Assembly (NCBI GenBank): GCA_964391595.1 | Contig: CAYMMM010000001.1 | Coordinates: 4,708 to 68,707 of the forward strand | Direction: 5' to 3' | Length of the DNA stretch: 64,000 nt | From: an uncultured Candidatus Saccharibacteria bacterium | GTDB taxonomy: Bacteria; Patescibacteriota; Saccharimonadia; CAILAD01; GCA-016700035 | Part shown: in pieces, positions 1,846 to 20,609 of the stretch | How positions within the stretch are numbered: position 1 is the first letter of the stretch | Layout of the letters: each line of letters starts with the position of its first letter | Position numbers and translations under genes: made by a program | The notes under the pieces: model-generated | What the model saw: only the letters and a program-made list of their open reading frames with translations | The model's database searches: none | Told to the model about the DNA's origin: nothing

Positions 1846-3476
1846 CGGTTGACCTCGACCGTGTAGAAGAGTGTTCGCTGTGGGAAGCTCGGCGAAGTGA
1901 TCGCTTTGACTGGAGCAGCTGGGTACTTTGCCTTGAGGGTATCAAGTACGTATTGTCTGTGCTCGTTGTTTTGCACGAAGAAGATAGTAGGGTCTTGTGA
2001 AAGTGGTACTGATTTGACTTGCTCCCATTCGAGCCGCTTCCAGCCAGAACCGCGATCGAGCCCAAAGCCATCATCGATGTTGTATTTGTAATCGGATTTT
2101 ATGCGTGTCAGATAATCAAAACTACGGATAGAATATCCATCTACGACTAGATATGTGGTGGGCTGGCTTGAGCCCTTGAGGGTCGTGTTGTAGAGCTTGG
2201 CCATTTCTGACATATCTTCAGCATACGCATCGTATGTCTGGACATCCCCCGCCCACGCCACGAAGTATGCTTTATAGCTCTGTGCCAGTGTGGCTGCGAG
2301 GAGTATCAGTATAAATGTGAGCCCGACGTTGCGTGCAATTGAGTTGATTGGGAATATCGTATACCACCTACCGATAAAGTATGACAAGCCGACAGCCGCC
2401 AATATCATTACTGCCGGAGATGAGCCGATCGATCGTAGGCCGTGTGGCAGACCTTCCGCTGTGAGTGCAGCCGGCAACATCATGGCTGCAAAGATACCTA
2501 AGAGTGCCACATACCGCGAATGTCGTAAAGCGTACAGAGATATAAGTATGCCTAGGATAAACATAATGCCTACGAATGTATTCAGGTATGGTTCTGCAGG
2601 GATGTTGTGGCGTGGATTTGTGTCTCCAGCGAAATTGTATTGCAAGAGAGTCTTGGACACGCTGTCTGCAAGCGTCTGTATTGGTTTGCCTTTGTTCAGC
2701 TCTTTATTGAGGAAGCTGGTAGCACCGGCGCGTGCTGCGGCATCTTTGTGGGTTATGCCATATATACCAAGCGGGGCAAGTACCACGAGACATGCAATCA
2801 GCCCACTTCCAACCTGCCTCCAATGTGACTGCAAGAATGTGCGCCTAAAGAGTGCTATGTATATGAGGAGTCCTACCACTGCAGCAATCATGAGCTGAAA
2901 TGCAGTATACGTGTAGGCTCCGAGACCCAAAAAAATTCCAGCGCCAATGAAGTAATGCATCTGCTTGGTCTTGTAGGCACGGCCACCGAAGTATGCCACG
3001 AGTGAGACCATGAGCGCTGTCATGCTGGCGCGAAAGCCATCTCGAGAAATGACTACTACCCAGGGATTAATCGCCATGAAGAATGCTGCCAATAAGCCTA
3101 CTCGACGGCCGAACCAGTCAGTTCCCCAATAGTATACAGCAATGACAGCGAGGACACCGATCGTAGCCGGCGCGATGCGCAATGCCAGGATGGTGTTGCC
3201 CATAAGCCATACGAAGATAGCCTGAAGGAAAAAGAAAAGTGATTCTCGCGGACCATTTGTTGCATACAGGGGCCGAATGTCGCGACTAAAGATACGGAAG
3301 ATATCCTGCCCGTTCGCAGCTTCGTCTGGGTGAAGGCCTGGTGGAAGCTGATCGAGTTGGTAAAAGCGGAAAAAAATTGCAAGCAGCACGATAGTCGCCA
3401 GTACAATCCATGTGCCGTATTTGGCGATAAAGTGTTGTTGTTTGGTGGCCTTCTTCGGCTTCGGTCCAGGAGCCAT
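1842..3476 (-). CDS. GT39/ArnT-family membrane glycosyltransferase
   Basis: 544 aa and multi-TM, with an LHPDEAANG loop motif. It overlaps the upstream GT2 gene by 4 nt, consistent with an operon. Confidence 0.75.
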   Translation of the reverse strand: MAPGPKPKKATKQQHFIAKYGTWIVLATIVLLAIFFRFYQLDQLPPGLHPDEAANGQDIFRIFSRDIRPLYATNGPRESLFFFLQAIFVWLMGNTILALRIAPATIGVLAVIAVYYWGTDWFGRRVGLLAAFFMAINPWVVVISRDGFRASMTALMVSLVAYFGGRAYKTKQMHYFIGAGIFLGLGAYTYTAFQLMIAAVVGLLIYIALFRRTFLQSHWRQVGSGLIACLVVLAPLGIYGITHKDAAARAGATSFLNKELNKGKPIQTLADSVSKTLLQYNFAGDTNPRHNIPAEPYLNTFVGIMFILGILISLYALRHSRYVALLGIFAAMMLPAALTAEGLPHGLRSIGSSPAVMILAAVGLSYFIGRWYTIFPINSIARNVGLTFILILLAATLAQSYKAYFVAWAGDVQTYDAYAEDMSEMAKLYNTTLKGSSQPTTYLVVDGYSIRSFDYLTRIKSDYKYNIDDGFGLDRGSGWKRLEWEQVKSVPLSQDPTIFFVQNNEHRQYVLDTLKAKYPAAPVKAITSPSFPQRTLFYTVEVNR

Positions 3477-3991
3477 TACTCGTATTCCTTAAAGACGAAG
3501 CGCTTATAGGTGAGATAATTCCATGTCAAGCTTGCTAGGGTTGCTACAGCTTTCACGCCATTGGTGACAATAAATTTGTCATCGACGAGCCTGGTGACAC
3601 CGAGGACTTGTGCGAGATGGACGCCTACTCCCACGGGCCAGAGCCAAACATGTTCAAAGAAATATATGATACCGCTCTGAATGACGTACAGACCAAACGC
3701 AGTCACTAGGAAGAACCGCGCAGCCTGTTCGAACTGTGAATCGTGGGTATGAGCTTTGAAGACAAAATTGCGATTGGCAAAGAAGCTAAAAAGCATAGCT
3801 ATAGTTGTTGCTGGAATGTTTGCGGCGAGGTCGCTCAGTGCAAAAACTCTCGTGAGGAGGTTGAGGATGCCGAAATCAATCAGCGTATTGAGCACACCGA
3901 CGATACCAAATCGACCTACTCGAGCAGCTTCTTTGGCGGCTGTAGCTTTTGGTGTGGTAGGGTTTTTGGGTTTAGACTTCGTCTCTGGCAT
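3476..3991 (-). CDS. GtrA-family membrane protein (putative flippase)
   Basis: 171 aa with 4 TM helices and GtrA-like motifs (GVLNTLIDFGILNLL). Its stop overlaps the start of the GT39 gene. Confidence 0.75.
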   Translation of the reverse strand: MPETKSKPKNPTTPKATAAKEAARVGRFGIVGVLNTLIDFGILNLLTRVFALSDLAANIPATTIAMLFSFFANRNFVFKAHTHDSQFEQAARFFLVTAFGLYVIQSGIIYFFEHVWLWPVGVGVHLAQVLGVTRLVDDKFIVTNGVKAVATLASLTWNYLTYKRFVFKEYE

Positions 3992-5421: not shown

Positions 5422-6878
5422 TCAACTACCTCGCCACCAAGTATTTCCAGGGCACTAGCCACAAGCTCTTGATCGTTATCTTGCTTCGGAGTGTTCGACT
5501 GAGACTCACCAGTGTGTTCAACCTTCAGTTCGATAGTCCTGCCAGATACCTTTGTAAATATTGCTTCGATGAGCTGGCGATTGTGCGCTTCTTCGATGCG
5601 TTCTTTGTGAAAACGGAAGCGACAGCGAATGAACAGTACACCGTCTTTGAGCTGCGGCTCACCTGAGCGTAGTACGGCATACAGCGAGTTGTTTTTTGTT
5701 TTGATGAGTGACAGTGCTTTCGTAGTGATAACTGAGTCATTCAGGCCTGTTGTCGGTATCGAAGATGCGGTGTCAGTGTTGCTTTCAACACTGGCTGGCT
5801 TTGGGGCTCTTCTTGCCTCCTTGGATGGATTCTGACCATGGGCTGGCGGTCTACTATATGGAGTGTTCGTTTGGGGTACTTGTGTTATTGCCTCTGCGCT
5901 CGTGAGCTCCCAGACTGCAAGCTCGAGTGGCAAGCTAGGGATATTTGCACTACGTTGCTCCGTGGCTGCTCGGGACAAAACACGCAATACCTGGTAGTAG
6001 CGATCTGCTTCAGTCTTGCTTGCAGCGAGGAATGCTTGCCGGACGTGACTCACGAGGTACTCAGTGAGGATCGAAGGATCTGCACCAGCAGAGAGTACGT
6101 CGGCAAGGTGTGATAATGCTAGTTTAGTATCCTTCTCGAGAATAGCATCTACCATGGCTAGAATGCGCGCTACATCGCCGATCCCGGAAGCTTGCGCTAC
6201 TACCGCACTCGTAATCGCGTCACCACGGCTTGCGAGTTGATCGAGGAGACTGAGCGCATCACGAAATCCTCCCTGAGCTTGCGTGGCGATAAGTTGTATC
6301 GCCTCTGGTTCTATACTGATCTGTTCTTTCTTCGCGACCACTGTAAGCGCCTCGGTTAGGTCTGTAGTAGATATTAGCCTGAAATCATGTCGCTGCGTGC
6401 GTGAGATAATAGTGTCGGGTAGCTTGTGCACCTCAGTTGTTGCTAGCACAAAGATGACGTGGGCTGGCGGCTCCTCGAGCGTCTTCAAGAGTGCATTAAA
6501 CGCCTCGCGTGTGAGCATGTGAACCTCGTCAATAATAAATACTTTGTATGGAAGGGTGCTTGGCGCGGTAGCTAGTTTGTCTCGGAGAGCACGAATCTCG
6601 TCAATACCACGATTTGATGCGGCATCAATCTCGATAATGTCGAGCTCGCGTACGATATCGGCCTCAGCAGGAAGGTTGTTTACTCGTCTCGCTATGATGC
6701 GCGCCACACTCGTCTTGCCGGTGCCTCTTGGACCAGTCAAAAGATACGCATGACTAATTGCGCCTTTTTGAAACGCTTTGTCGAGTGTGTCGGTCACATG
6801 CTTTTGTCCGACAACATCTTGCAGATCTAGTGGTCGATATGACCGATATAGAGCGAGCTGAACCACTCCCCTCCTCAC
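5418..6878 (-). CDS. dnaX: DNA polymerase III subunit gamma/tau
   Basis: 486 aa with a GPRGTGKT P-loop, a DEVHML box and an SRTQRHDF sensor motif. It overlaps dnaB by 4 nt. Confidence 0.9.
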   Translation of the reverse strand: MRRGVVQLALYRSYRPLDLQDVVGQKHVTDTLDKAFQKGAISHAYLLTGPRGTGKTSVARIIARRVNNLPAEADIVRELDIIEIDAASNRGIDEIRALRDKLATAPSTLPYKVFIIDEVHMLTREAFNALLKTLEEPPAHVIFVLATTEVHKLPDTIISRTQRHDFRLISTTDLTEALTVVAKKEQISIEPEAIQLIATQAQGGFRDALSLLDQLASRGDAITSAVVAQASGIGDVARILAMVDAILEKDTKLALSHLADVLSAGADPSILTEYLVSHVRQAFLAASKTEADRYYQVLRVLSRAATEQRSANIPSLPLELAVWELTSAEAITQVPQTNTPYSRPPAHGQNPSKEARRAPKPASVESNTDTASSIPTTGLNDSVITTKALSLIKTKNNSLYAVLRSGEPQLKDGVLFIRCRFRFHKERIEEAHNRQLIEAIFTKVSGRTIELKVEHTGESQSNTPKQDNDQELVASALEILGGEVVE

Positions 6879-6951
6879 TAATATTACTCAGACTATTATA
6901 ACGCAGAATGAGTTCGCAGGAGGAGTTCGAAGTGGCCTTATGGGATTAAAG

Positions 6952-7149
6952 TTAGCGTTTTTTGCGCTTGATTTCGACTTTGTCTACCAAGAAGTTCACG
7001 AGCCAGAGGGCGGCGATAAACTCGATGCAGATAAGCGGAACACCAATCGGACCATTGAGGGTATCAAGCAGCTGTTGGTTCGTTTGTAGCATTGCGACGC
7101 TAATCAAGCCGAGCAATATCCCTCTGAGGATAAGATCATAATTTTTCAT
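6952..7149 (-). CDS. Small membrane protein (hypothetical)
   Basis: 65 aa with two hydrophobic helices; there is no homolog I recognise. Confidence 0.3.
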   Translation of the reverse strand: MKNYDLILRGILLGLISVAMLQTNQQLLDTLNGPIGVPLICIEFIAALWLVNFLVDKVEIKRKKR

Positions 7150-7216
7150 GCGGCACTCATATTAATAGTGCTTATGATTATAGGCTTGCATCTGGAGATC
7201 AGGCAAGTTGCTATGT

Positions 7217-7759
7217 TTAGCCGATAACGGCTTCGATAGCAGCCCAAGAAGCCACACGATCGGCTGGAATGACGACAGTCACTTCGTCTCCGGGCTGCGC
7301 TTTGAAGTACGTGACGCTCGCGAAGAGTACGTGGTACAGCTTTCCGCCTGCCTCAACCATATATGTGCCGTCTTGGAGGGTAATCTTACCAATGAGTTTT
7401 TTGCGTTCGATTGGGCCGATTTGCTTGTAGATGAAACTGCCATCATCGGAGATGGTGAGCTTGAGAATGTCGCCTTCAACGAGCTTTGACTTGGAGGCAT
7501 AGTTCGCTGGCACAGGATAGGTCTTATCGCCAGGTCCCATCATGTTTTGACCGTCGAATACGCCCTCAATGACCTTGCCGGCATTTGCATCACTATTTTG
7601 ATAGGCTGTCTGGCGTGCCGATGGCTTGGCTGGGCTCGATTCCTCGGGCTTGACACCCATACCGGCGAGTTGCTCGTGGAGCTGTTTGAGCTGCTCCTCA
7701 GCTGCCTTGAGCTGAGCAGCGAGCTCGGTTACTTTTTCGTCTTGTGGGTTGTTTGCCAT
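7217..7759 (-). CDS. Hypothetical protein with an N-terminal coiled-coil
   Basis: 180 aa. The ELAAQLKAAEEQLKQLHEQL heptads are followed by a beta-rich C-terminal domain. It sits where rpoB would normally follow rplL. Confidence 0.5.
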   Translation of the reverse strand: MANNPQDEKVTELAAQLKAAEEQLKQLHEQLAGMGVKPEESSPAKPSARQTAYQNSDANAGKVIEGVFDGQNMMGPGDKTYPVPANYASKSKLVEGDILKLTISDDGSFIYKQIGPIERKKLIGKITLQDGTYMVEAGGKLYHVLFASVTYFKAQPGDEVTVVIPADRVASWAAIEAVIG

Positions 7760-7938: not shown

Positions 7939-8376
7939 TTACTGGAGTTCGATTGTAGCGCCAGCAGCTTCGAGCTTTGTCTTAGCTTCTTCGGCTTCTT
8001 CTTTGGTTGCGCCTTCTTTGACCATCTTTGGAGCTTCGTCCACAACAGCCTTAGATTCTGCGAGACCAAGACCAGTGATTTCACGAACAGCCTTGATGAC
8101 GTCGATCTTCTTGTCGCCTGCAGCAGCGAGGAAGATGTTGAATGAAGTCTTCTCTTCTGCAGCTTCGCCAGCTTCGGCTGGAGCAGCAACGCCCGCAACT
8201 GCTACAGGGGCTGCTGCTGATACGCCGTAGTGATCTTCGAGAGTCTTCACGAACTCTGAGAGATCGAGAACGCTCATTTTGTCGAGTTCAGCAACGAGCT
8301 TTTCGAACTTTGCTGGAACTTCTTTTTGCTCTTCTTTTACTTCTTCTGCTACTGGAGCAGTTGTTTCTTCTGCCAT
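7939..8376 (-). CDS. rplL: Ribosomal protein bL12 (L7/L12)
   Basis: The listed ORF is N-terminally over-extended. The true start is [13 protein letters not shown] at ATG 8374-8376, with an AAGGAGAA RBS upstream, and the product has the typical L7/L12 C-terminal domain. Confidence 0.9.
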
Positions 8377-8401: not shown

Positions 8402-8935
8402 TTACGCAGTAGCTTCTTTCTTATCTTTAATTGCTTGTAAGGCGTAGACCAATCCTGAGACGTTGCCATTGAGGGCGCGGACGAGGCCTGACATTGGAGC
8501 GGCGATAGTGCCAACCACCTGGGCCAGGAGCTGTTCGCGACTTGGCAACTTAGCGAGCGCGATGACTTCTTCTTTCGTGAGGATGTCACCAGTTTCGCTA
8601 ATTGCGCCAACTACTTCTACTGCATCATTGTCTTTTGTGAAGTCAACGATGAGTTTAGCGGCTTCAACCTCATCGGCGCCAAAAGCTACAGCCATTGGGC
8701 CTACAAAAGCTGACATGTCGGTGATTTCCTTATTACTCGCTTCGGCAGCTCGTTTGAGGAGCGTGTTCTTAGCGACCGTGAAGGTAATCCCCTTCTCGCG
8801 TCCAGCGTTACGCAAAGCGTTGATCGCTGGGACATCGAGTCCGCGGTAGTCGGTCAGGACGGCAAGCTTAGAAGCATTGAGGCGCTCGACCAGTTTTTCG
8901 AGGTCTTGCGTCTTTTGTTCACGGGTTTTTGCCAT
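8402..8935 (-). CDS. rplJ: Ribosomal protein uL10
   Basis: 177 aa and L10-like ([19 protein letters not shown]...). Confidence 0.9.
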
Positions 8936-9083
8936 CGTGAATTCCTTTATTTAATGAAAAAATCTTCGGTGCGAGCACTGAAGACACGAGAGACTGATCT
9001 TATGAAAAGATGTTGTCTTGGCCTCGGTAGCAGATTAAGGCAGGTTGAAGTGCCAGCTACTGTCTTCGGTTCGTACGAGAGAT
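8936..9083 (-). promoter_or_regulatory. Putative rplJ 5' leader (candidate L10(L12)4 autoregulatory leader)
   Basis: There is a ~150-nt untranslated region between the putative promoter and the rplJ start. The assignment rests on position only; the structure is not verified. Confidence 0.3.
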
Positions 9084-9112
9084 ATAGTAACAGATATGAG
9101 GGTATGGGTCAA
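9084..9112 (-). promoter_or_regulatory. Putative sigma70-type promoter for rplJL
   Basis: In minus-strand sense the sequence is TTGACC, a 17-nt spacer, then TACTAT. It lies immediately downstream of the island terminator. Confidence 0.35.
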
Positions 9113-9141
9113 TAGAAATGGCCCCCTCTCGCGAGGGGGCC
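9111..9141 (-). terminator. Intrinsic terminator after the ThyX-like gene
   Basis: A 9-bp GC stem (GGCCCCCUC / GAGGGGGCC) is followed by AUUUCUAUU on the minus strand. Confidence 0.5.
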
Positions 9142-9160
9142 AACAGATTCAAAGGAAAAC

Positions 9161-10840
9161 TCAGTCTTCGGTGAGTGCAGCCTGACGCCGCGCCTCAAGT
9201 CGCTGCTCAGCTGCGATACGGCCGAGATCATATCGTTCATAGTCGGCGTAGCGCATCATCTCTGCAATTGCAGTGTGCCCGGCCACATTCTCGACTGCTT
9301 CGTGTATCGACTGACAGACCCGTCGGTAGTCGTCGTGGCCGGCGGGCTGAGTACGCAGCTCCACCATGTGTGTTAGCGCCCGGGCGTTGATCTGGATCGC
9401 GTAACGCATACGGTATGCGAAACCGAGTGCGTATTGAGGCTGAGCGTCAGCGGGAAAGACTCCACGCAGCTCGTCGAACAGCGCCGCCTGGGCTTCGAGT
9501 GCAGCGTCGTAGTGACCGCGCAGTCCCGATAGCTCAATCAGCGGTGGCACGATGTAGCCATGCACCGGCGTCAGCGTCTGCCAGGTCATGGTCAGCATGC
9601 GGTGCCGCTGAAGGTCGCGGAAGGCGCCGTAGTCGCTGAGGATCTCGAAGCGGTAACCAACCATCTCAAGCTGTCGCCCTGGCTTGTGACGCCGGTTGTG
9701 TGATCGATCACCGAAGTACGCTTCGAGTATCGACAACTTCTCATGATGGCTCATCAATTCCACGCGCCTACGCAGCTGTACCTCTGAGAAGTGCGTCTGC
9801 TCTGCCAGGATCGCGGCAACGAGCTTCACCTCATAATCGGGATCGAAGTCGAGTAGCTGTACCTCTGACGAGGTGGGCTCGAGCGTCAAGTCAGCCAGGA
9901 GTGCATCGGCTCGTTCGTTCACCGCTTCTCGATTTTGCTCGAGATAAGCACTCCAAGCGTTCCCGCGGTCTGGAAGATCGACGCGCTGCAAGAAGGATGG
10001 AATGACCTTGCGCAATTCCTTCAGCATCATGCCCGCGTATGCACGAGCTTCGGGCAGTGGATGAGCTCGCATGCGCAGCAACAGATGCTCGTACGACTGG
10101 CCCGAGCCGTAGATGCCCAAGTTCGAGATCGTCGCCGCAGGCAACAGTCCTCGAACATTGTCGAGCACTTTCGAACGTACCGACGCTTGCCAGGCAGGAA
10201 TCGACTGCCCATCAGCACGTGGATACAACTCCTCGGCCAGCGGCATGAGTTGCTCGAGCAGCCAGCTGTACTGCTGGAAGGTGATGTCCATGACATCCAC
10301 ATAGCGACCTGCCAACGGTGAGGCCATGATCTCGGGGTCGCGATAGTAGCGGTAGCGACCGTTCACGGTGCCGTCGTACCTGATGTAACGCGTCGATTGC
10401 TCGAGGTAGCCCATCAGGCGACCCCACTCGAGGATCTTGGTCAGCAGATTGCTGGCCTGCTCGCAGGCGAGGTGAGCCCCGCCCAGCTGCGCGACTGAAT
10501 CGTCGCCGTAGTCGCTGAACACCTTGTCGAACAGCTGTGTTCCGCGTTGAAGACCTGCGCCAGCGCCAGGTGCCACGTCCTCGGCTTCCTCGAGCTTCTC
10601 GTAGAACTCGGTGAGAAAAAGCCGACGCAGGCTCAACTCGGTGCGTGAGTAGCGCGCGAACAGTGCGGCGCGCACCACTTCGTCAAGTCCGCGCACTGCG
10701 AAGACCGGCAGATGCGTGTTGGTGAAGTAGCGCTCGAGGATTGCACACTCTGCTTCGGTGAACTCCTCGGCCGTGTAGCCGATGATGTCGGTTGGGGACA
10801 TCTTGTTCTCTCTTTCTGTCATGGTACTCTTGTCGAACAA
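9161..10840 (-). CDS. ThyX-family (Thy1, FAD-dependent thymidylate synthase-like) protein, double-length form
   Basis: 559 aa. The C-terminal region matches the ThyX C-terminal signature: NARALTHMVELRTQPAGHDDYRRVCQSI versus ThyX NARSL..LR...HAQ.EIR. An RHR motif is present (LQRHRMLT). The N-terminal half looks like a degenerate second copy. The gene appears G+C-rich. Confidence 0.6.
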   Translation of the reverse strand: MFDKSTMTERENKMSPTDIIGYTAEEFTEAECAILERYFTNTHLPVFAVRGLDEVVRAALFARYSRTELSLRRLFLTEFYEKLEEAEDVAPGAGAGLQRGTQLFDKVFSDYGDDSVAQLGGAHLACEQASNLLTKILEWGRLMGYLEQSTRYIRYDGTVNGRYRYYRDPEIMASPLAGRYVDVMDITFQQYSWLLEQLMPLAEELYPRADGQSIPAWQASVRSKVLDNVRGLLPAATISNLGIYGSGQSYEHLLLRMRAHPLPEARAYAGMMLKELRKVIPSFLQRVDLPDRGNAWSAYLEQNREAVNERADALLADLTLEPTSSEVQLLDFDPDYEVKLVAAILAEQTHFSEVQLRRRVELMSHHEKLSILEAYFGDRSHNRRHKPGRQLEMVGYRFEILSDYGAFRDLQRHRMLTMTWQTLTPVHGYIVPPLIELSGLRGHYDAALEAQAALFDELRGVFPADAQPQYALGFAYRMRYAIQINARALTHMVELRTQPAGHDDYRRVCQSIHEAVENVAGHTAIAEMMRYADYERYDLGRIAAEQRLEARRQAALTED

Positions 10841-10894
10841 GTCGTATCAATAATATCTGAAAACGTACAAAATACGAAATCATAAGGACTTTGT

Positions 10895-10929
10895 GAGAAA
10901 AAATACAGCCCCGGGATTGCTCCCGGGGC
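10895..10929 (-). terminator. Intrinsic terminator after tmk
   Basis: A 9-bp stem (GCCCCGGGA / UCCCGGGGC) is followed by UGUAUUUUUUCUC on the minus strand. Confidence 0.6.
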
Positions 10930-10939
10930 AAGGCAGCAT

Positions 10940-11587
10940 TTAACTAGTAAGGACATTCTCCTCTAGTAACGTTTTGATCGCTAGCGACACGCGCTCGATG
11001 GACTGAAGCCCGTAGATCTCGTGAGTGGTATAGCCCATTTCACGCATGATTCTACAGGCATCCATATACCCGTTTGCGATCATACGTAAATACTGCTCAC
11101 CTTGTGACTCGAAGAAATCACGTGCTTCGCCGCGTCCATCAACACGTCTTTCTGATTCGTCGTACGGCAGCGTGATGACAATGAAGAGATCCGGTCTACA
11201 GATCGGGTCGACGTACTTCTCGTGGAGGAGTCTGATCTCGTCTAGGTCGGTACCCCCGACGATGCCTTGATACACGAAGGTAGAAGCTTCGCTCCGATCG
11301 GCGATCACCCATTCGCCAGCTTCGAGGGCTGGAAGAACAACGCGTCGTCGCATACCCATTCGAGCGGCTACAAACGTCAGAAGCTCTTCGTCTGCTTCAT
11401 GGTGAAGGTCGGGGTCCTTCAATACGAGCCTGAGCGCTTCACCGAAGGGGTCGCCCCCGGGCTCGCGCACTACGCGACATCTCTGCCCCATGCCAGCGAG
11501 CCAATTGGCAATGATCTCGCATTGCGTGCCTTTGCCTGCCCCTTCGGTTCCTTCGATGACGATGTACTTTCCTCTTTCAGTCATCAA
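10940..11587 (-). CDS. tmk: Thymidylate kinase
   Basis: 215 aa with a P-loop (IVIEGTEGAGKGTQ) and the typical dTMP kinase fold motifs. Confidence 0.85.
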   Translation of the reverse strand: MMTERGKYIVIEGTEGAGKGTQCEIIANWLAGMGQRCRVVREPGGDPFGEALRLVLKDPDLHHEADEELLTFVAARMGMRRRVVLPALEAGEWVIADRSEASTFVYQGIVGGTDLDEIRLLHEKYVDPICRPDLFIVITLPYDESERRVDGRGEARDFFESQGEQYLRMIANGYMDACRIMREMGYTTHEIYGLQSIERVSLAIKTLLEENVLTS

Positions 11588-12528
11588 CCCTCCTCGAGGT
11601 TTGCGATAGAATAGTCCGGGATTGGGAGCAACGGCAACGGGGCAACGAACTCATCCTTGTCGGCGCGAGGGATCATGCGCTTGACCGACCAGTCGGCGAT
11701 AGTCTTCTCGAGACTATCCGATGCCGTATGGTACTTCGATGATGTTCCGCCGTACGGCCGCAGCACGGCGCCGGTATGGTGAAACACGATCTGTGCGATG
11801 CGGTCACCTACGGCCAGGATGCACAACTCCTGGTTGAAATTGTGGATCTCCATAGTCCAGCGGGTTGCGTAGCCGGGATCCCCCCATCCCGCGTCAATGC
11901 AGACTGCGATACCGTTGCGGCCAATCGTGCTGCGAGACTGCATTGAAGTTGTGCCGGGTGGCAGAATCCCAATGAACTCATGTGTATGAGCCAGAATGCG
12001 CTCCCCTGGGAATACGGGGATGACAAGCGCATCATCGGGCAGATTTGCGAGCAGCCCAAGTCCATTGGACTCACAGAATTCGCGATGAGGTTTTGGCTTC
12101 TCGGCCCGGAAGAATCGCTCAATGTCCTCGGGGTTGCGGTGGTCGTAGATTGGGCTCTTATTGGCATTCGCTACGAAGAACCCGTCTCCACCCAGCGTTA
12201 CATCGACTGAACTCCCTTTGATGTTGGCTGGTACCAGCGGGTGGCAGATGATGTTACCGCGACGGATCGCACCAAGAATCTCGCTGTCCGAATACACTCC
12301 ACCGGCGATGCGCTCGATGTAGGCAAGCAGGTTCTTGACCCACTTCTCGAAAGCATCAGGAGTGTTCAGAAGAGCCTTGATCGCCCCCGGATCGGACAAG
12401 CCCGCGAGGATTGCGCTCCTGAGTTGATCCGACGCCCTCTGGTCAGGGTGGATGCCCTGTAGAAGAGAGGCTTGATCGACAGCTCGTCGCGTCTTATCGA
12501 CCAGTTCATCCAAGTTGTCACTTGGCAT
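11584..12528 (-). CDS. dCTP deaminase/dUTPase-family protein (Dcd-like) with N- and C-terminal extensions
   Basis: 314 aa with a central Dcd/Dut-like core (AGWGDPGY and ILAVGDRIAQIVF motifs). It overlaps tmk by 4 nt. Confidence 0.65.
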   Translation of the reverse strand: MPSDNLDELVDKTRRAVDQASLLQGIHPDQRASDQLRSAILAGLSDPGAIKALLNTPDAFEKWVKNLLAYIERIAGGVYSDSEILGAIRRGNIICHPLVPANIKGSSVDVTLGGDGFFVANANKSPIYDHRNPEDIERFFRAEKPKPHREFCESNGLGLLANLPDDALVIPVFPGERILAHTHEFIGILPPGTTSMQSRSTIGRNGIAVCIDAGWGDPGYATRWTMEIHNFNQELCILAVGDRIAQIVFHHTGAVLRPYGGTSSKYHTASDSLEKTIADWSVKRMIPRADKDEFVAPLPLLPIPDYSIANLEEG

Positions 12529-12630
12529 ACCGTCTCACTTTCTTAGTAGGTACAAAACGATCTGTATTAGTGTAGCGGAAATGTGCATGAGCTCAAAAGC
12601 ATAAGATGTAAGAATGTATGATTACGCACT

Positions 12631-12660
12631 AAAAAAACACCCTTACGGGTGCTTTTTTTA
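12631..12660. terminator. Bidirectional intrinsic terminator between rplA and the island
   Basis: The sequence AAAAAAACACCC-UUAC-GGGUGCUUUUUUU has A and T runs flanking the stem on both sides. Confidence 0.5.
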
Positions 12661-12678: not shown

Positions 12679-13620
12679 CTATTTCGCTACGAGTTCGGCG
12701 GTGTCGAGCTTCACGCCCGGTGTCATGGTGGCGGCAACGGTGATTGACTTCACGTATGTCCCCTTCACGCCAGATGGGCGGTTGGTTTGTACGCACTGTA
12801 ATACGGCGCGTCCGTTGGCAACGAGATCTTCTGCCTTGAAGCTGAGCTTACCGACTGCAGCGTGGATGATGCCGTTCGCATCGTTCTTGATCTCGAGACG
12901 GCCTTGCTTGATCTCCTTTACGGCAGTAGCTGGGTCAGCAGTCACGGTGCCACTCTTCGGTGATGGCATCAGTCCTTTTGGACCGAGCGTCTTCGCGTGG
13001 CGGCCGAGCTGAGCCATCGTGTCTGGTGTAGCTACTAGGACGTCAAAGTCGAGCGTACCCTTACCAATGTCGGCGAGCAATTGCTCTGAGTCAGTCACAT
13101 CAGCACCAGCTTCTGCAGCTGCTTTGGCTTTTTTGTCATCAGCTGTCAGTACTGCCACTCGAACGGTTTTACCACTTCCTGCTGGAAGTGCGGTAGATGC
13201 ACGGACGGTTTGGTCGGCCTGACGTGGGTCTATGTCAAGGCGAATATGGAGCTCAAGCGTGGGGTCAAACTTGGCGGTAGAAATCCTTTGAACGAGCGCA
13301 ACGGCTTCATCGAGTGTGTAGAGTTTATCGAAATCAATTGCTTCGCGCATGGCTTGTTGATTCTTGGAGTATCTCTTCACACGAGGCTTAGCCTTTGGCT
13401 TAGGAGCATCTGCTTTTTCGGCTGCCTCAGCTTTGCGTTCCTCTTTTGCCTCAGCTTCTTCTGCTTCTTTTGCGGCCTTGGCGCTGCGCTTCCCCGCTTT
13501 GGCAGTTGACGTTTTCTTGGCTGGCTTTTCTTCTACAGTCTCTACTTGTTCTTCAGCTACTACATCGGTTGGTTCGGTAGCGACTACTTCTTCTACGATT
13601 TCTTCAGATTTCTTTGGCAT
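12679..13620 (-). CDS. rplA: Ribosomal protein uL1 with an ~80-aa E/K/A-rich N-terminal extension
   Basis: The canonical L1 core begins around KPRVKRYSKNQQAMREAIDF. The start is MPKKSEE at ATG 13618-13620, preceded by an AAGGAGAA RBS; the listed ORF start at 13668 is probably over-extended. Confidence 0.85.
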   Translation of the reverse strand: MPKKSEEIVEEVVATEPTDVVAEEQVETVEEKPAKKTSTAKAGKRSAKAAKEAEEAEAKEERKAEAAEKADAPKPKAKPRVKRYSKNQQAMREAIDFDKLYTLDEAVALVQRISTAKFDPTLELHIRLDIDPRQADQTVRASTALPAGSGKTVRVAVLTADDKKAKAAAEAGADVTDSEQLLADIGKGTLDFDVLVATPDTMAQLGRHAKTLGPKGLMPSPKSGTVTADPATAVKEIKQGRLEIKNDANGIIHAAVGKLSFKAEDLVANGRAVLQCVQTNRPSGVKGTYVKSITVAATMTPGVKLDTAELVAK

Positions 13621-13675
13621 AATGTTCTCCTTGTGGTGCAAGCGGCGGATAGATATCACGCCTCCCACGGGTTAT
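13621..13675 (-). promoter_or_regulatory. Conserved leader element upstream of rplA (copy A; putative L1-binding autoregulatory site)
   Basis: A ~50-nt segment immediately 5' of the start codon is near-identical to the segment upstream of rplK. In mRNA sense it reads CCGUGGGAGGCG-stem-loop-CGCCGCUUGCACCACAAGGAGAA. Confidence 0.45.
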
Positions 13676-13683: not shown

Positions 13684-14115
13684 TTACTTCTCGACCTCTA
13701 CACCCATTGAGCGGGCTGTACCAGCAATGATTTTCTTCGCGGCATCGATGTCGTTTGCATTCAAGTCTGCCATCTTAGTCTCAGCGATTTCGGTCAGTTG
13801 GGCATCGGTGAGTTTACCGACCTTTTCCTTGTTCGGAACACCACTAGCCTTCTGGAGGCCGAGAGCTTGCTTGATTAGCATCTTGGCAGGCGTGCCTTTT
13901 ACTTCGAAGGTAAAGCTCTTGTCTTCATAAATAGTGATCTTGGTTGGGCACTGAGCGCCACGCATGTCCTTGGTCTGTTCATTGAAGGCGTTAATGAAGT
14001 CCATCATATTTACACCGTGCTGACCCAAGGCTGAACCAACTGGTGGAGCTGGTGTAGCACCGCCTGCTGGGATAACCATCTTGAGTTTTGCTGAGATCTT
14101 CTTTGCTTCTGCCAT
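13684..14115 (-). CDS. rplK: Ribosomal protein uL11
   Basis: 143 aa and L11-like ([27 protein letters not shown]...). Confidence 0.9.
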
Positions 14116-14186: not shown

Positions 14187-14723
14187 CTAAATCTTCTTAA
14201 CCTGCAGGCTGTCAAGCTCGACAGGCGTTTCGCGACCGAACATGGTCACGAGTACTTTGATCTTACCCTTAGCTTCGTCGATTTCGCTGATTTGCCCATC
14301 GCAGCCCTTGAATGGCCCGTCGGTAATATTCACCGTCTCGCCTATCGAGTAGTCGATCATGAACTTCGGTTCCTCGACGCCCATGCGCTTTTGGATGAGC
14401 TTGACCTCATCTTCAGCCATTGGACTTGGTGTGGTGCCAGTTCCGACGAAGCCGGTAACGTTTGGCGTGTTACGGACGACGAACCAGCTGTCTTCGGTGA
14501 CATCCATATTCACCAAGATATAGCCTGGGAAAATTTTACGTTCGACAATGCGTCGCTTACCATTCTTGATTTCAATCTGGTTTTCTTTTGGTACGACGAC
14601 ATCAAAAACCTTATCTTTCATACCCATTGTATCGATGCGGTGAAGTAGATTTTGTGCGACTTGGTCTTCATACCCTGAGTAGGTGTGGATGACATACCAT
14701 TGGCCTGGTGACGATGTTTTCAT
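14187..14723 (-). CDS. nusG: Transcription termination/antitermination factor NusG
   Basis: 178 aa with an NGN domain (WYVIHTYSGYE) and a KOW domain. Confidence 0.9.
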   Translation of the reverse strand: MKTSSPGQWYVIHTYSGYEDQVAQNLLHRIDTMGMKDKVFDVVVPKENQIEIKNGKRRIVERKIFPGYILVNMDVTEDSWFVVRNTPNVTGFVGTGTTPSPMAEDEVKLIQKRMGVEEPKFMIDYSIGETVNITDGPFKGCDGQISEIDEAKGKIKVLVTMFGRETPVELDSLQVKKI

Positions 14724-14767: not shown

Positions 14768-14956
14768 TTAGGATCTGGTGAGTAACTTTTCAAGAATGGT
14801 TCGAAAAAGCAGATCAAATCCAGCCAGATAGACTGCTACTACGAGAGTAAAAACCAATACTACAGTCGTCAAAAATATTGTTTGACGGCGGCTCGGCCAA
14901 ATAACGCGGCGGAGCTCTTGATATGAACTGGTGAAATAACGTAGTAATTTTTTCAT
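14768..14956 (-). CDS. secE: Preprotein translocase subunit SecE
   Basis: 62 aa with a single TM helix, lying directly upstream of nusG. Confidence 0.75.
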   Translation of the reverse strand: MKKLLRYFTSSYQELRRVIWPSRRQTIFLTTVVLVFTLVVAVYLAGFDLLFRTILEKLLTRS

Positions 14957-16396: not shown

Positions 16397-17236
16397 TTAA
16401 CGATTATGCCAGAGAAAAAGTAGCTTTTCGTATGTCGGGATGCTGACTCGCTGGCTGTATACAGTATACTGCTTTTGCTTAATCCTTTCGAGTAGCTCGG
16501 CATAGAGTCTCAAGATATACCGCACTGGCCGCTGGTAGCTAGGGTGTAGGTCATCTATAGCACGAGCTGCGTGCGTCAAGTAGGTCTGCGCGCGCTTTGT
16601 CAGTATGGTTAGCGCACGTTCGAGACCGGCTTGATTTGTGCGTTGTAGGAGTTGCGCGGGCGTGAGTTGCGCTTCTCGCAAAACACTCTGGGGTATGTAT
16701 ATTCTCTGTAAGTCTATGTCGGTGCCGACATCGCGAATAATATTGACATACTGCATACCGATACCGAGCTGCTTTGCGCCGAGTAATGTTGAACGCTTGG
16801 TAGCGCCGAGTATGCGCGCGCACAGTATGCCGACGATCCCAGCGACCTCGTAGCTGTATCGATCGAGCTCTGAGATCGTGAGAGGCTGTCGAAACACGAT
16901 GTCACTTGTGACGCCATCAAGTACGGTTTCGAGCTCTGCGATTGGAATCCGATATACTTTGATCAGATTAAAGACAGCCGGCCATATATCCGTTTCGACT
17001 GGTGGCGATTTGCGGATGTGCAGCGCTCGTCGCATCATCATGAGCTGTCGCCGCTTCATGCTTGATGTGAGGGTCGTACTGTCAGCAATGTCATCGGCTA
17101 CTCTACAAAATGCGTAGAGTGCTTGGATCGCTTGCCTCGTTTCACGGTCAAAAAGATAGGTCGCGAGGGTAAAGTTGGAACTTGCACGGCGCGTAATTCG
17201 TGCGCACGCCGCTTGGCTGGCACGCTGGCTGGTCAT
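16397..17236 (-). CDS. crtB: Phytoene synthase (squalene/phytoene synthase family)
   Basis: 279 aa with a DDxxD motif (RVADDIADS) and SQS/PSY family motifs. Confidence 0.8.
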   Translation of the reverse strand: MTSQRASQAACARITRRASSNFTLATYLFDRETRQAIQALYAFCRVADDIADSTTLTSSMKRRQLMMMRRALHIRKSPPVETDIWPAVFNLIKVYRIPIAELETVLDGVTSDIVFRQPLTISELDRYSYEVAGIVGILCARILGATKRSTLLGAKQLGIGMQYVNIIRDVGTDIDLQRIYIPQSVLREAQLTPAQLLQRTNQAGLERALTILTKRAQTYLTHAARAIDDLHPSYQRPVRYILRLYAELLERIKQKQYTVYSQRVSIPTYEKLLFLWHNR

Positions 17237-18324
17237 TTTGTCCTACTTACCAGGAAGTCAGTTAAAGCAATGAATTCATCACCGAGCCCGCCTGGGAGCG
17301 CAAGTTTACCGATAGCTTGCTTTGCTCGGGCGGCTTCTTCTTGTGCGAGAAAGGTTGTTTTTGCCTTTGCACCGTTTGCGCTGAGGATTTTGCGAACAAG
17401 TTTGAGATCAGATTGCGTGACATTTGGATTGCCAAAGAATTTCTTCAGAATGACAGATTGTGTCTCATCGGCAAATGCAAAGCCATAGTGCATAAGCAGT
17501 GTACGCTTGCCTTCACGCAAGTCCGAGATGATTGGTTTGCCGATTTCGCGCGCCGCACCAAACATGCCGAGTAAATCGTCAGTGATCTGGTATGAAACGC
17601 CAGCGTGGAGACCATACCGCTCTAAGATTTGTAGGATTGTTGGGTTGGCACCAGCCAAAATTGCTCCGCTACGAAGTGGTGTAACCATACTGTAGCGAGC
17701 TGTTTTGAGTATATAGATCTTTTTAATTTTTTCGATCTTGAGGTGCTGTTCGGTGCTGGCGAGATCGTCAAGCTGCTGTCCTCCGGCAAGTTGAAAGTGG
17801 AGTCGATTCAGTTCACCCTTGAGCTGACTACGAACCTCGAACTCCACCGGCATTGTATCTAGTACTTCGTGGCACATACCTAGAGCAATATCTCCAGCAA
17901 GGAGTGCCATGTTGCGAGCGTGTAGGCCCGTGTGCTCGTCAGTAAGTCGTCGTTTAAAGAGCCGGATATAAGAACCTGAAATATTTGGCCCGCCATAACG
18001 CTGATCGTCTTGATCCATAATGTCGTCGTGTATCACGGCAAATAGATGATAAAGTTCCCAGGCGACACCAAGCTGGATAGCCTCCTTCTCACGTTTGCCA
18101 CCCGCTACTTCATAGCCGAGTGCCACGAGATAAGGACGCAGGCGTTTGCCGCCGCGCAGACTAAATTTCTTAAGTTCGCTGATAAGCCGTCTGTACTGAC
18201 TATCGATTTTGCTCGCTTCAGTCAGTTTCTTATCCCAGAGCTTCGTCAGCTCGATATCGATACTAGTCTTGACCTGCTTAATGCGGTTCTGGAGTTGCTC
18301 AGTCGATGCTGCGTTTGTAGTCAT
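17233..18324 (-). CDS. crtE: Polyprenyl diphosphate synthase (GGPP synthase-like)
   Basis: 363 aa with both aspartate-rich motifs (HDDIMDQDD and QITDDLLG). It overlaps crtB by 4 nt. Confidence 0.8.
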   Translation of the reverse strand: MTTNAASTEQLQNRIKQVKTSIDIELTKLWDKKLTEASKIDSQYRRLISELKKFSLRGGKRLRPYLVALGYEVAGGKREKEAIQLGVAWELYHLFAVIHDDIMDQDDQRYGGPNISGSYIRLFKRRLTDEHTGLHARNMALLAGDIALGMCHEVLDTMPVEFEVRSQLKGELNRLHFQLAGGQQLDDLASTEQHLKIEKIKKIYILKTARYSMVTPLRSGAILAGANPTILQILERYGLHAGVSYQITDDLLGMFGAAREIGKPIISDLREGKRTLLMHYGFAFADETQSVILKKFFGNPNVTQSDLKLVRKILSANGAKAKTTFLAQEEAARAKQAIGKLALPGGLGDEFIALTDFLVSRTK

Positions 18325-19801
18325 GGTTTATCCGTTCTGCGACCAGCTTACCAGAAAGCGTCACCATCGGTACACCACTACCGGGATAGGTTGAAGCCCC
18401 GACAAAGTACAGGCCTTTGATATCGCGACTCACGTTGTGAGGTCGGAAGTAGCCGGATTGGAAAAAGTAGTGACTTAAGCCAAAGGCAGACCCATCGGTG
18501 AGATTGTATTTCGTGAGGAAGTCTTCCGGTGTGAAGACAGCTTCTGTCTTGATATGCTTCTTGAGATCTAGCTTCATAATAGTCTTCATGCGTTCGAGTA
18601 CGCGTGCTCGAGTTTTCTCGACCGCTGCATCCCAGTCGATGTCTGACTGCAAATTTGGTACAGGCACGAGTATGTAGAGTACATGCTTGCCCATCGGCGC
18701 CAAACTTGGGTCGGTTTTAGTCGGGATGTAGACATAAAACGCGGGGTCATCTGGGAGTTTCTTCTCATGGAAGATTTCGTTGAGATTGTGCTTGAAGTCA
18801 TCGGAGAAATAGACATTGTGATGGAGCATTTCTGGCAAGTCATGATCTACTCCCCAATAAAAAAGGAGTGCACTCGAGGCTTGCTTGAGCTTGGCAGTTT
18901 TTTTGTCAGACATTTTGGGTCGATGTTTGGCGTCCACAAGCTCGCGATATGAGTAGGTCAGGTCAGCGTTCGATATGACGATATCGCATTTGATGACTTG
19001 CTTATCCGTTAGCTCTACGCCCTGCACTTTGCCGTGATACACAAGAATCTGATTGATGGGTGTGTTGAGGCGTATGGTCACCCCTAGCTTCTCGCAGAGC
19101 TGCTGCAAGGCTCGTGGTAGCGCGTGCATCCCACCCTGCGGATACCATATACCTAGTCCCGTCTCCATATAGCTCACGACAGAATACACTGCAGGCGCTT
19201 CGTATGGGGTAACCCCGAGGTACATTGATTGGAAGCTGAAGAGTTGGCGCAGCCTCCAATCGGTGAAGTAACGAGAAACAAATGTGTATAGCTTGCTCAG
19301 TCCCCTGCCCTTGAGCAGTTCAATGCCAGCTGGCACATCAATAAAATCAGTCAGTTTGTCGAAGTTCTTGTCGATAAACTTCGCACGAGCGAGTCGATAG
19401 ATTTTGGCGACGTCAGCAAAGAAGCGATAAAACTGCTCGGGTGCCTTCTCATCTATGCGTGCGAGTTCTTTCGTGAACCGTGGGAGGTTTGAGCTCACCT
19501 CAATCGTCTCTCCGTCTGGAAACCACGTTTTGTAGTTTGGTTCGAGCTGCGAAAGCGAGACATAGTCGTCAAGATTTTCACCGCAATACGCGAATGTATC
19601 ATAGAGGACGTCGGTCATCATGAGGATGGTTGGCCCCATATCGAATGTGTAGCCGTCTTGCTTAATGACGTGAGCGCGACCACCTACAATAGATTCTTTT
19701 TCGTAGATTGTTACCTTATACCCATCGTGTGCCATGCGGGCTGCTGCACAGAGACCACCGATACCCGCACCAATTATTACCACCTGTTTCTGTTTCGTCA
19801 T
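18299..19801 (-). CDS. crtI: Phytoene desaturase
   Basis: 500 aa with an N-terminal FAD fold (VVIIGAGIGGLCAA) and CrtI-type architecture. It overlaps crtE by 26 nt. Confidence 0.85.
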   Translation of the reverse strand: MTKQKQVVIIGAGIGGLCAAARMAHDGYKVTIYEKESIVGGRAHVIKQDGYTFDMGPTILMMTDVLYDTFAYCGENLDDYVSLSQLEPNYKTWFPDGETIEVSSNLPRFTKELARIDEKAPEQFYRFFADVAKIYRLARAKFIDKNFDKLTDFIDVPAGIELLKGRGLSKLYTFVSRYFTDWRLRQLFSFQSMYLGVTPYEAPAVYSVVSYMETGLGIWYPQGGMHALPRALQQLCEKLGVTIRLNTPINQILVYHGKVQGVELTDKQVIKCDIVISNADLTYSYRELVDAKHRPKMSDKKTAKLKQASSALLFYWGVDHDLPEMLHHNVYFSDDFKHNLNEIFHEKKLPDDPAFYVYIPTKTDPSLAPMGKHVLYILVPVPNLQSDIDWDAAVEKTRARVLERMKTIMKLDLKKHIKTEAVFTPEDFLTKYNLTDGSAFGLSHYFFQSGYFRPHNVSRDIKGLYFVGASTYPGSGVPMVTLSGKLVAERINHDYKRSID

Positions 19802-19826
19802 AATGTTATCAATTATAATCTAGAGT

Positions 19827-20225
19827 ATGGCTTGGCTCTATACTCAATGGGCATATATCGTGATTTTATGCGTTTCACTGACGGGGCTCACGATACTAGA
19901 TTGGCGACACAACGCATTGCTTTGGAGAAGCGCTGCGAGCAAGCAAGCTACACTTGCGACACTCGGCTGCATGCTTGGGTTTTACCTCATTTGGGATTTT
20001 GTAGGTATTTGGCTTAAGATTTTCTCGACGAATCCGCGATATGTCGTAGGGGTCTACTTCTTCACGCGAGATTTACCGATTGAAGAAATCATCTTTCTTA
20101 CGTTGCTCACATATGTGATCCTATTAGTTGCGGCGTTTGTCGAGAGATTCTCATACAAGTCTCAAAGTAAGACGCATACTAGAAGGGCTAAGTCGAAAAT
20201 AAAGCATAAGCGAGGGCGTGTGTAG
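19827..20225 (+). CDS. Lycopene cyclase domain protein (CrtYc/CrtYe-like half)
   Basis: 132 aa and 3-TM, a small lycopene-cyclase-domain protein. It starts only 25 bp from the divergent crtI. Confidence 0.6.
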   Translation: MAWLYTQWAYIVILCVSLTGLTILDWRHNALLWRSAASKQATLATLGCMLGFYLIWDFVGIWLKIFSTNPRYVVGVYFFTRDLPIEEIIFLTLLTYVILLVAAFVERFSYKSQSKTHTRRAKSKIKHKRGRV

Positions 20226-20587: not shown

Positions 20588-20609
20588 TCAATCGCTCAGA
20601 GAAGTATTT

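Follow-up and report, generated by a model that had tools for sequence, protein, structure and literature searches.

Thymidylate genes in a lineage-specific gap between rplA and rplJ of Saccharibacteria: evidence for replacement in place

In Escherichia coli and Bacillus the genes secE-nusG-rplKA and rplJL(-rpoBC) stand in the same order as in the DNA studied here, as separate transcription units and with a ribosomal protein L10 leader (RF00557) directly upstream of rplJ, and the inter-operon gap between rplA and rplJ of E. coli measures a few hundred bases. We analysed a 64,000-nucleotide stretch from an uncultured Candidatus Saccharibacteria bacterium (positions 4,708 to 68,707 of contig CAYMMM010000001.1, hereafter the window) in which, unlike in those genomes, this gap holds a module of thymidylate genes, namely a dCTP-deaminase-family gene (dcd), the dTMP kinase gene tmk and a gene for a long ThyX, and in which rplL is followed by a gene for a conserved 180-aa protein, dnaX and dnaB instead of rpoBC. 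The sporadic distribution of the thymidylate synthases ThyA and ThyX and their frequent lateral, non-homologous displacement are well documented (PMC2826268, PMC5954106). An earlier note on this DNA had taken the three genes for a horizontal insert from a G+C-rich actinobacterial donor. We consider it probable instead, at roughly 0.8, that they are ordinary housekeeping enzymes in a lineage-specific slot undergoing repeated in-place replacement, and that the module serves as a resident supply of thymidylate (dTMP and dTDP).

Relatives of the locus were found by scanning species-representative genomes with RplJ, which returned a Candidatus Saccharibacteria/Saccharimonadia (Patescibacteria) clade at 57-74% identity, beyond which the values fall to about 45% or less, and the window proteins together with alternative slot proteins were mapped onto the fetched loci (given as L-numbers). 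Family matches and this map bear out the earlier note's reading of three genes (Dcd-like, Tmk and ThyX-like) between rplA and rplJ, and the interval it had drawn, 9111-12660, is almost exactly the stretch that is non-homologous to the relative L005 (about 12747-9096). Its proposal of a horizontal insert that splits rplKA from rplJL does not survive the comparison, for which the note itself had set the same interruption in close relatives beforehand as the observation that would tell against it. In every locus of the clade that shows rplA, rplA and rplJ are split by 1.2-6.7 kb that hold thymidylate-pathway genes; the interruption occurs in roughly two dozen loci (RplJ 57-96% identity) and also in L062, an oral TM7i-like locus with 51% flank identity that reads rplA-x-ThyA-DHFR-Dcd-x-x-L10 leader-rplJ (DHFR, dihydrofolate reductase), and the mapped loci have in common a wider synteny of secE-nusG-rplK-rplA, then the slot, then rplJ-rplL-180-aa gene-dnaX-dnaB. 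Further away, L030, a more distant Saccharibacterium, carries a ThyA-type set upstream of rplJ, and L047, another Patescibacterium, reads rplA-tmk-rplJ; in many other Patescibacteria rplA is not near rplJ, with L044 as one locus in which both are contiguous. Since the interruption is present in every relative where rplA is visible, L062 included, the split is ancestral in Saccharibacteria, an old and lineage-wide arrangement, and thymidylate genes would have occupied the gap since before the environmental and oral lineages separated. The same observation speaks against the three genes being one cassette from a G+C-rich actinobacterial donor that split a contiguous rplKAJL, an explanation that we regard as very improbable and that meets further evidence, on both sides, below.

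Within this fixed slot two non-homologous versions are found, Dcd(-Tmk)-ThyX(-SHMT) and dCMP deaminase-DHFR-ThyA(-SHMT), SHMT being serine hydroxymethyltransferase. Dcd-Tmk-ThyX, the content of the window, recurs in L007, L017, L018 and L064, and in L063 Dcd-Tmk is followed by a 380-aa Thy1-family gene; L008 and L014 read Dcd-Tmk-ThyX-SHMT, the latter with a Crp-family regulator as well, L001 and L012 read Dcd-ThyX-SHMT, L061 reads Dcd-ThyX, and L025 and L027 read ThyX-SHMT. The ThyA set of L005, L009, L010 and L020-L024 comprises a cytidylyltransferase-like gene, dCMP deaminase, DHFR, ThyA on the opposite strand, sometimes a NUDIX gene and usually SHMT, and L019 is a partial ThyA-type locus with rplA off the contig; Pfam searches of these alternative genes returned dCMP deaminase, DHFR (in some cases fused to HIT), ThyA and NUDIX. 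ThyA oxidises folate and hence requires DHFR, whereas ThyX needs none, and on this established knowledge of the pathway both slot versions are biochemically coherent. ThyA is usually paired with dCMP deaminase and ThyX with Dcd, L062 being a mixture of ThyA, DHFR and Dcd. Among the remaining loci, Dcd stands alone in L015 and L016 and together with a Crp-family regulator in L026, and in these three slots without a thymidylate synthase the enzyme may be encoded elsewhere in the genome or may have been lost.

Some details of the alternative occupants may be noted here. The DHFR of the ThyA-type slot is about 330 aa long (L005 7918-8934, L009 4924-5907 and L030 5878-6861) and is extended at its C-terminus, the extension matching HIT in L005. 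A HIT-NUDIX fusion is present in L030. The slot dCMP deaminase has an N-terminal part of about 130 aa without a family match, and its gene is preceded by that of the cytidylyltransferase-like protein. In L064 a DUF3800-II RNA (10102-10165, minus strand; RF02961, 62.6 bits) adjoins a weak DUF3800 protein match.

That the occupants of the slot replace one another in place is seen when they are set against their flanks. Built from up to eight flank proteins (1,937 columns, 200 bootstraps), a neighbour-joining tree contains four well-supported groups, and in it the window, with its ThyX, pairs with L005, its sister among the species representatives, which has the ThyA version (96% support, 80% identity). 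L020 (ThyA) and L025 (ThyX) likewise have flanks that are 84% identical, and those of L010 (ThyA) and L011 (ThyX) are 92% identical, whereas L008 and L012, at 89% flank identity, have ThyX proteins of just 33% identity and differ in the presence of Tmk (present in the former, absent from the latter). The nucleotide sequences of L020 and L025 align collinearly as far as the rplA end and then once more from where SHMT begins, and what lies between these breakpoints, 3.6 kb of one locus and 2.0 kb of the other, is unrelated. Between the window and its relatives, homology extends through rplA and stops at about 12700-12750; with L005 it is lost at about 12748 and regained at about 9095 at the L10 leader, homology to both L005 and L007 being back at about 9095-9098. 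The genes rplA and rplJ and, judged by identities, that of SHMT follow the species tree, and simple parsimony on the flank tree gives at least five switches between ThyA and ThyX among about 25 genomes. Moreover, at least five mutually distant Thy1-family genes occur in the ThyX position, identity between the ThyX types being 31-41%, and the ThyX of L008 is 74-81% identical to that of L014 although the flanks of this pair are 68% identical; because the synthases are closer than their flanks, this is good evidence of transfer between Saccharimonadia lineages. Vertical flanks, analogous or distantly related occupants and a distribution that runs against the species tree are the marks of displacement in situ, and all of them are present here. 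As for the marks of a genomic island, the segment has the deviant composition, but its site is not empty in relatives and its genes are not all foreign, and no mobility gene, meaningful flanking direct repeat, nearby tRNA or integrase-like open reading frame (ORF) was found at the segment. Replacement would have proceeded by recombination in the conserved flanks, with no insertion of a mobile cassette. The ThyX-based and ThyA-based sets alternate among close relatives.

The comparison with L063, a close relative (RplK 94%, DnaB 82%), narrows the exchange to a single ORF. The window and L063 have in common Dcd (63%), Tmk (56%) and the tmk-thyX leader (88% over 51 nt), and their homology resumes in the region of the thyX terminator and the L10 leader (9124-9021), while the 380-aa Thy1-family protein of L063 has no BLASTP similarity to the window ThyX. 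The thymidylate synthase ORF alone is exchanged between the two lineages, with its flanking signals conserved. The leader (10836-10886, minus strand; 5474-5524 in L063) contains the block CTTATGATTTCGTATTTTGTACGTTTTC and a small palindrome, ends at the ribosome-binding site and has a promoter-like site within it (10850-10821); it matches no Rfam family, and when sought in all fetched loci it turned up nowhere but in the window, its identical contigs, L065 and L063. The hairpin that follows tmk is also kept in L063, with a different sequence. For the window lineage we envisage that Dcd and Tmk were inherited within the clade and that the ThyX ORF alone came to differ from L063.

The ThyX of the window (9161-10801, minus strand) is 546 aa long from its ATG, with the ORF reaching a TTG at 10840. 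It matches PF02511 in two stretches at 115.4 bits (cut-off 24.8) and TIGR02170 at 47.4 bits against a cut-off of 87.9, and a phmmer search of the long protein against the PDB gave no match at E ≤ 1e-3. When an AlphaFold2 model (pLDDT 73, above 85 in the C-terminal domain) was compared with the PDB by Foldseek, it matched 2af6, the TM0449 entries, 6j61 and PolB (4p5b) with probability 1.00 and TMt 0.52-0.68, each match spanning about half of the chain, and these half-chain matches together with the two Pfam stretches point to a tandem Thy1 protein. In a 39-sequence alignment RHR (R399-H400-R401) is invariant only in the C-terminal domain. The ThyX motif is RHR(X)7S, and the C-terminal domain reads RHRMLTMTWQT, with Thr in place of the expected Ser; the N-terminal domain is without RHR and retains ELSLRR, which we take to resemble the substrate-binding end (...ELSxRY) of the canonical motif, as in T. 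maritima. Such a distribution of motifs suggests that the long ThyX could be a fused pseudo-dimer with roles divided between its domains.

The nearest sequences to this protein are one identical, one at 90% (L065, RplJ 96%) and several at 60-66%, those with context examined being Saccharimonadia slot genes (L001, L017, L018 and L061). More than 100 proteins follow at 55-58%, the named ones from Acidimicrobiia or Actinomycetota, and the most similar ThyX outside Saccharibacteria is that of Acidimicrobiia at 55-59% identity. When the best 120 hits are put into a tree, the Saccharimonadia type B sequences come out as monophyletic (100%) and as sister to an Acidimicrobiia-like set (100%). An actinobacterial cassette would draw support from these relations, as it would from the raised third-position G+C (GC3) of all three genes and from the 71-72% G+C of the Acidimicrobiia thyX loci. 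However, the long-ThyX family has 834 representatives at E ≤ 1e-30 in an exhaustive search, and in a tree of 127 diverse ThyX sequences the backbone, the Acidimicrobiia link included, has bootstrap values of 25% or less, so that the sister relation dissolves under wider sampling while types B, C and D/E stay separate, well-supported clades; of the neighbouring clusters, hardly any of which carried a taxon name, one is Chloroflexota. Furthermore, two Acidimicrobiia genomes have thyX as a lone gene within a conserved TatA-TatC-HelY-YegS neighbourhood, where neither dcd nor tmk is close by, and we rejected an origin of the whole cassette in Acidimicrobiia on this ground; with it falls the earlier note's three-gene unit from Actinobacteria. 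Dcd is moreover of the host-lineage type and Tmk has no actinobacterial affinity, repeats and mobility genes were not found, and an identity of 55-59% would make the transfer too old for an un-ameliorated donor composition. Of the actinobacterial neighbours that the note had suggested looking for in each of the three proteins, there remain the Acidimicrobiia as nearest outsiders of ThyX, with Dcd grouping with Saccharibacteria, Tmk giving no actinobacterial signal and the donor tree unsupported. An actinobacterial source of the window ThyX itself is possible. Likewise, of the foreign exchange that the note had in mind, the exchange of thymidylate synthase genes at this spot stands, and the recent actinobacterial cassette does not.

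Relatives of the long ThyX also occur outside cellular genomes. The putative viral contig L066 (IMG/VR UViG_3300034990_000021, 60.8 kb) encodes at 6001-7596 a full-length long ThyX that is 49% identical, and about 28 further large viral contigs carry ThyX relatives at 21-32%. The neighbours of the L066 gene are mostly without assignment or belong to PHROG families of unknown function. Such copies, together with PHROG matches for all three proteins and the proposal that viruses are vectors of thy gene transfer (Stern et al. 2010, PMC2826268), could be read to mean that the module is the remnant of a phage or other mobile element carrying nucleotide-metabolism genes. We hold this to be highly unlikely, given that neither the segment nor the DNA beside it yielded an integrase, structural genes or attachment-like repeats, that its flanks are ribosomal operons conserved in all relatives, and that the PHROG matches are to generic enzyme families; for the locus a mobile element or prophage was rejected, the repeats being only short and of the kind expected by chance. 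The idea could hold for the delivery step only, and since long ThyX is present on viral contigs, phage delivery of the incoming genes is possible.

Dcd (11584-12528, minus strand, 314 aa) matches PF22769 at 100.4 bits (cut-off 27; E 1.3e-28) and TIGR02274 at 87.3 bits against a cut-off of 92.8, with the core at about residues 79-270, an N-terminal extension of about 78 aa and a C-terminal extension too. Its best PDB matches, weak at E 1e-10 to 1e-5, are 4xjc, 2qxx and 1ogh, ahead of E. coli 1xs1. In the alignment with 4xjc, SRSTIGRNG faces GRSSVGRLG and AGWGDPGY...TMEIHN faces AGWVDPGF...TLELFN, and the Ser/Arg and Glu deaminase-site motifs, whose residues we take to be catalytic in the Dcd family, are kept. 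The entry 1ogh was deposited as a bifunctional dCTP deaminase:dUTPase, 2qxx and 4xjc are likewise known as bifunctional enzymes, and for the window Dcd a direct formation of dUMP is weakly supported. Named homologues of Dcd come from Candidatus Saccharibacteria (TM7i included) and Nomurabacteria at 50-57% over the core, and identities of 63-71% within clade A and 54% to the L062 Dcd keep step with the flanks, which places Dcd in the host lineage; clades B-D have another type of Dcd, which has diverged further (32-40% identical). The N-terminal extension is found only in the closest relatives (the 303-314-aa proteins P0122-P0128 and L063); L007 (255 aa) and typical Saccharibacteria Dcd (224-240 aa) lack it.

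Tmk (10940-11584, minus strand, 214 aa) scores 118.9 bits against TIGR00041 (cut-off 83.25) and 103.6 bits against PF02223 and has the P-loop GTEGAGKGT in its translation. Its ATG overlaps the dcd stop by 1 nt (2052-2996 and 2996-3640 on the identical contig L004), which suggests translational coupling of dcd and tmk. The protein belongs to a small family at 46-74% that includes the gene beside the 63% Dcd of L063; outside this family, proteins of assorted Proteobacteria and Gemmatimonadota follow at about 40% identity, and the homologue search gave no actinobacterial signal. A deaminase coupled in translation to a kinase-fold protein, an unexplained Dcd extension of about 78 aa and a match of Tmk to the PADLOC candidate model PDC-M51B (E 2.4e-13) might also bring to mind anti-phage nucleotide depletion, with a defensive dCTP deaminase and an associated kinase, instead of biosynthesis. 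This is the least probable of the explanations that we weighed, and we rejected it: Dcd and ThyX have no PADLOC match and that of Tmk is a generic kinase match to a candidate model, Tmk lies above the dTMP kinase equivalog cut-off, and the slot, conserved across the whole class beside ribosomal operons, always holds a coherent dTMP pathway in which SHMT or DHFR co-vary with the synthase as the biochemistry predicts.

The enzyme identities thus rest on family matches and the activities are those that such matches predict. Dcd would deaminate dCTP to dUTP, or to dUMP directly if it is bifunctional, the long ThyX would methylate dUMP to dTMP with methylene-tetrahydrofolate and reduced flavin, a route which for that reason should need no DHFR, and Tmk would phosphorylate dTMP to dTDP. 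Searches of the 64-kb window showed no second thyA, folA, dcd, tmk or glyA, which answers for the window the earlier note's question about other copies of such genes; no dut was noticed there either, no search aimed at dut having been made.

The segment was said by the earlier note to be richer in G+C than its surroundings, and this is so. The 3.5-kb interval 9001-12500 ranks first of 122 sliding windows both for G+C (0.568, z 3.1) and for raw tetranucleotide distance (z 3.8), and GC3 is 0.705 (z 4.3) in thyX, 0.660 (z 3.3) in dcd and 0.588 (z 1.8) in tmk, with the 63 other ORFs of the window at 0.505±0.047 as reference. The rise is genuine and lies at the synonymous sites of the whole module. 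Among the composition measures that the note had put forward, G+C, GC3 and raw tetranucleotides deviate, whereas the tetranucleotide correlation, once normalised for composition, is unremarkable (rank 61 of 122), so that only the G+C-dependent part of the signature departs from its surroundings. In most relatives the slot genes are mildly GC3-rich whatever their type, with a strong excess in L007 (z 5.2, 3.4 and 5.5), in L008 (up to 8.7) and in the ThyA of L062 (3.8), a mild excess in most other loci, and none in L063 and mostly none in L064; in the Acidimicrobiia loci the GC3 of thyX is 0.90-0.97. Most likely the excess is a by-product of in-place exchange, and it may have been brought in by import from G+C-richer sources, possibly as a tract recombined in from a clade-A relative richer in G+C, or arisen through GC-biased repair at a recombination-prone site. 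Its greater strength in the window (z 4-5) than in the clade-B carriers (z 1-2) hints at a more recent exchange.

Several points weigh against repeated replacement as the full account of this locus. The GC3 excess covers Dcd and Tmk too, both of which appear vertical, and L063 shares them without any excess, so that a simple import does not explain the G+C shift. The trees are neighbour-joining trees only and the deep ThyX backbone is poorly supported; Dcd and ThyX both score below their NCBIfam equivalog cut-offs, so their exact activities are not assured; and the 64 kb covered here are part of a genome in which dut, a second thymidylate synthase, glyA and salvage genes may lie elsewhere. Finally, the window ThyX is 64-66% identical to that of its clade-B relatives (L001, L017 and L018), and its flanks are 65% identical to theirs, a divergence that agrees equally well with an old vertical descent, the gene having been replaced in L005, L007 and L063, and with acquisition by the window lineage. 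One may therefore ask whether the window type of ThyX is ancestral in clades A and B and vertical here, L005, L007, L063 and L014 having replaced theirs, with the G+C rise as a mutational or selective effect specific to the gene or region. The match between ThyX and flank identities, the monophyly of type B, the close relative L065 with the same ThyX and also a raised GC3 (0.634), and the mild GC3 richness of slot genes of every type all agree with such a history, but it would require four or more independent replacements within clades A and B, and the GC3 of the window stands well above that of clade-B carriers of the same type, with none of the excess in L063. We consider it a possible but doubtful account of the window ThyX. 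In-place replacement is itself observed among the relatives, and a bolder form of our reading would make the gap between rplA and rplJ a dedicated exchange site, at which the thymidylate synthase, together with the genes for dUMP supply and folate recycling, turns over ORF for ORF under conserved regulatory flanks at a rate far above that of its neighbours, driven by conflict rather than drift. This is improbable on what we have, and at present we can only speculate that one pressure could be escape from inhibitors of ThyA, DHFR or ThyX made by hosts, competitors or phages, and that incoming genes might come from hosts (Actinomycetota) or from phages with a long ThyX.

The slot so described is bordered by rplA upstream (to its left) and by the L10 leader downstream (to its right), and its setting is conserved. 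Every gene of this region is on the minus strand, in the order secE (14768-14956), nusG (14187-14723), rplK (13684-14115), rplA (12679-13668; uL1, PF00687 180 bits, TIGR01169 284 bits against a cut-off of 216), the three slot genes, rplJ (8402-8935), rplL (7939-8376) and the gene for the 180-aa protein (7217-7759), then dnaX and dnaB, with rplJ and rplL identified by matches to PF00466, PF16320 and PF00542 and by gene calls on contig L003. Terminators that bracket the segment, with a further one after tmk, had been predicted in the earlier note, and hairpins are indeed found at these places. After rplA, CACCC-GTAA-GGGTG stands between A7 and T7 (12631-12659; 12638-12651 in plus-strand reading), a symmetry that makes a bidirectional terminator possible; after tmk a terminator-like hairpin and T-run (10898-10929, hairpin 10908-10929, minus strand) read GCCCCGGGAGCAATCCCGGGGC and then TGTATTTTTT; and after thyX a 10-bp hairpin with 8 G-C pairs (9119-9142, minus strand) is followed by TTTCTATT. 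Terminator-like sites number 20 in 8 kb, compared with 8.3±2.7 in shuffled sequence, so that any one site is merely suggestive, and these three are placed exactly at gene ends. The predicted promoter of rplJ directly after the segment has its counterpart in a sigma-70-like candidate for rplJL at 9084-9112 (minus strand; TTGACC, 17 nt, TACTAT, with TG before the -10), called by consensus match only, with 7 such sites in 8 kb against 5.7 expected. Next to it lies the L10 leader (8947-9087, minus strand; RF00557, 52.9 bits, gathering threshold 44), which also precedes rplJ in five relatives (L005, L007, L009, L062 and L064). The placement of the signals at gene ends combined with the Rfam match makes the operon picture credible, in which the module would sit between two transcription units, rplKA ended by a terminator and rplJL with its own promoter and leader.

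Among the neighbours, the product of rplA is 329 aa in total, of which about 100 aa form an N-terminal extension where Lys, Glu and Ala abound, and uL1 is 313-349 aa long in the relatives, the oral-type L062 included. The 180-aa protein has no Pfam match and is 54-91% identical throughout the clade. A carotenoid cluster (16397-22577) adjoins secE-nusG, the same set being present in L001, and consists of a phytoene/squalene synthase (16397-17236), a polyprenyl synthase (17233-18324) and a CrtI-like amine oxidase (18299-19801) on the minus strand, followed on the plus strand by two small ORFs (19827-20225 and 20225-20587, the second matching the PF18916 lycopene cyclase) and a UbiA prenyltransferase fused to a GT2 glycosyltransferase (20511-22577). 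Its layout is presumably reminiscent of actinobacterial C50-carotenoid clusters, and such a cluster is notable for an epibiont with a reduced genome. Elsewhere in the window, an ORF at 51787-52467 (minus strand) with G+C 0.633 (GC1 0.77, GC2 0.64, GC3 0.49) has no Pfam match and may encode a low-complexity protein or be spurious.

Considering that a class of ultra-small episymbionts keeps its thymidylate pathway in one gap between ribosomal-protein operons, the slot offers a natural system for the study of how non-homologous enzymes replace each other in place, and it bears on whether epibionts take such genes from hosts or phages. ThyX and DHFR are drug targets that differ here between near relatives, which matters for predicting sensitivity to antifolates and ThyX inhibitors, and for the scanning of genomes the locus teaches that a G+C-rich block in a conserved cluster does not by itself imply a recent insertion. 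Our literature search found no paper that combines Saccharibacteria with ThyX or describes the slot, and a paper on a collection of Saccharibacteria genomes does not mention thymidylate.

With respect to known systems, displacement in situ within conserved neighbourhoods is an established concept, and gene displacement of this kind within conserved operons was reportedly described by Omelchenko et al. in 2003. As there, a slot gene is replaced by a distant homologue or analogue while the flanks remain vertical, whereas the frequency seen here is unusually high for one small clade. The non-homologous displacement of ThyA and ThyX is said to go back to a report by Myllykallio in 2002. Similar to what has been described for this pair of synthases (PMC2826268), unrelated enzymes are scattered among close relatives and DHFR accompanies ThyA and not ThyX. 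In the Saccharibacteria, however, all of this takes place at a single, fixed site on the chromosome with breakpoints that coincide with gene boundaries, and it extends to the whole upstream pathway (Dcd versus dCMP deaminase) as well as to the replacement of one ThyX by another. The module is also similar to the route of bifunctional Dcd:dUTPase plus ThyX in mycobacteria and certain archaea in having a Dcd-family enzyme with the Ser/Arg/Glu motifs kept, ThyX and Tmk, but differs from it in that its Dcd is phylogenetically of Saccharibacteria, has N- and C-terminal extensions and gives weak PDB matches. In its length and tandem Thy1 architecture the window ThyX is like the long ThyX proteins (about 530-560 aa) of Acidimicrobiia, Chloroflexota and other groups, which carry the annotation 'FAD-dependent thymidylate synthase', and the ThyX of Chlamydia, of similar length, is a characterised example. 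Taken together, the enzymes are of known families, and the slot is a clear and well-delimited example of a known evolutionary process rather than a new kind of system.

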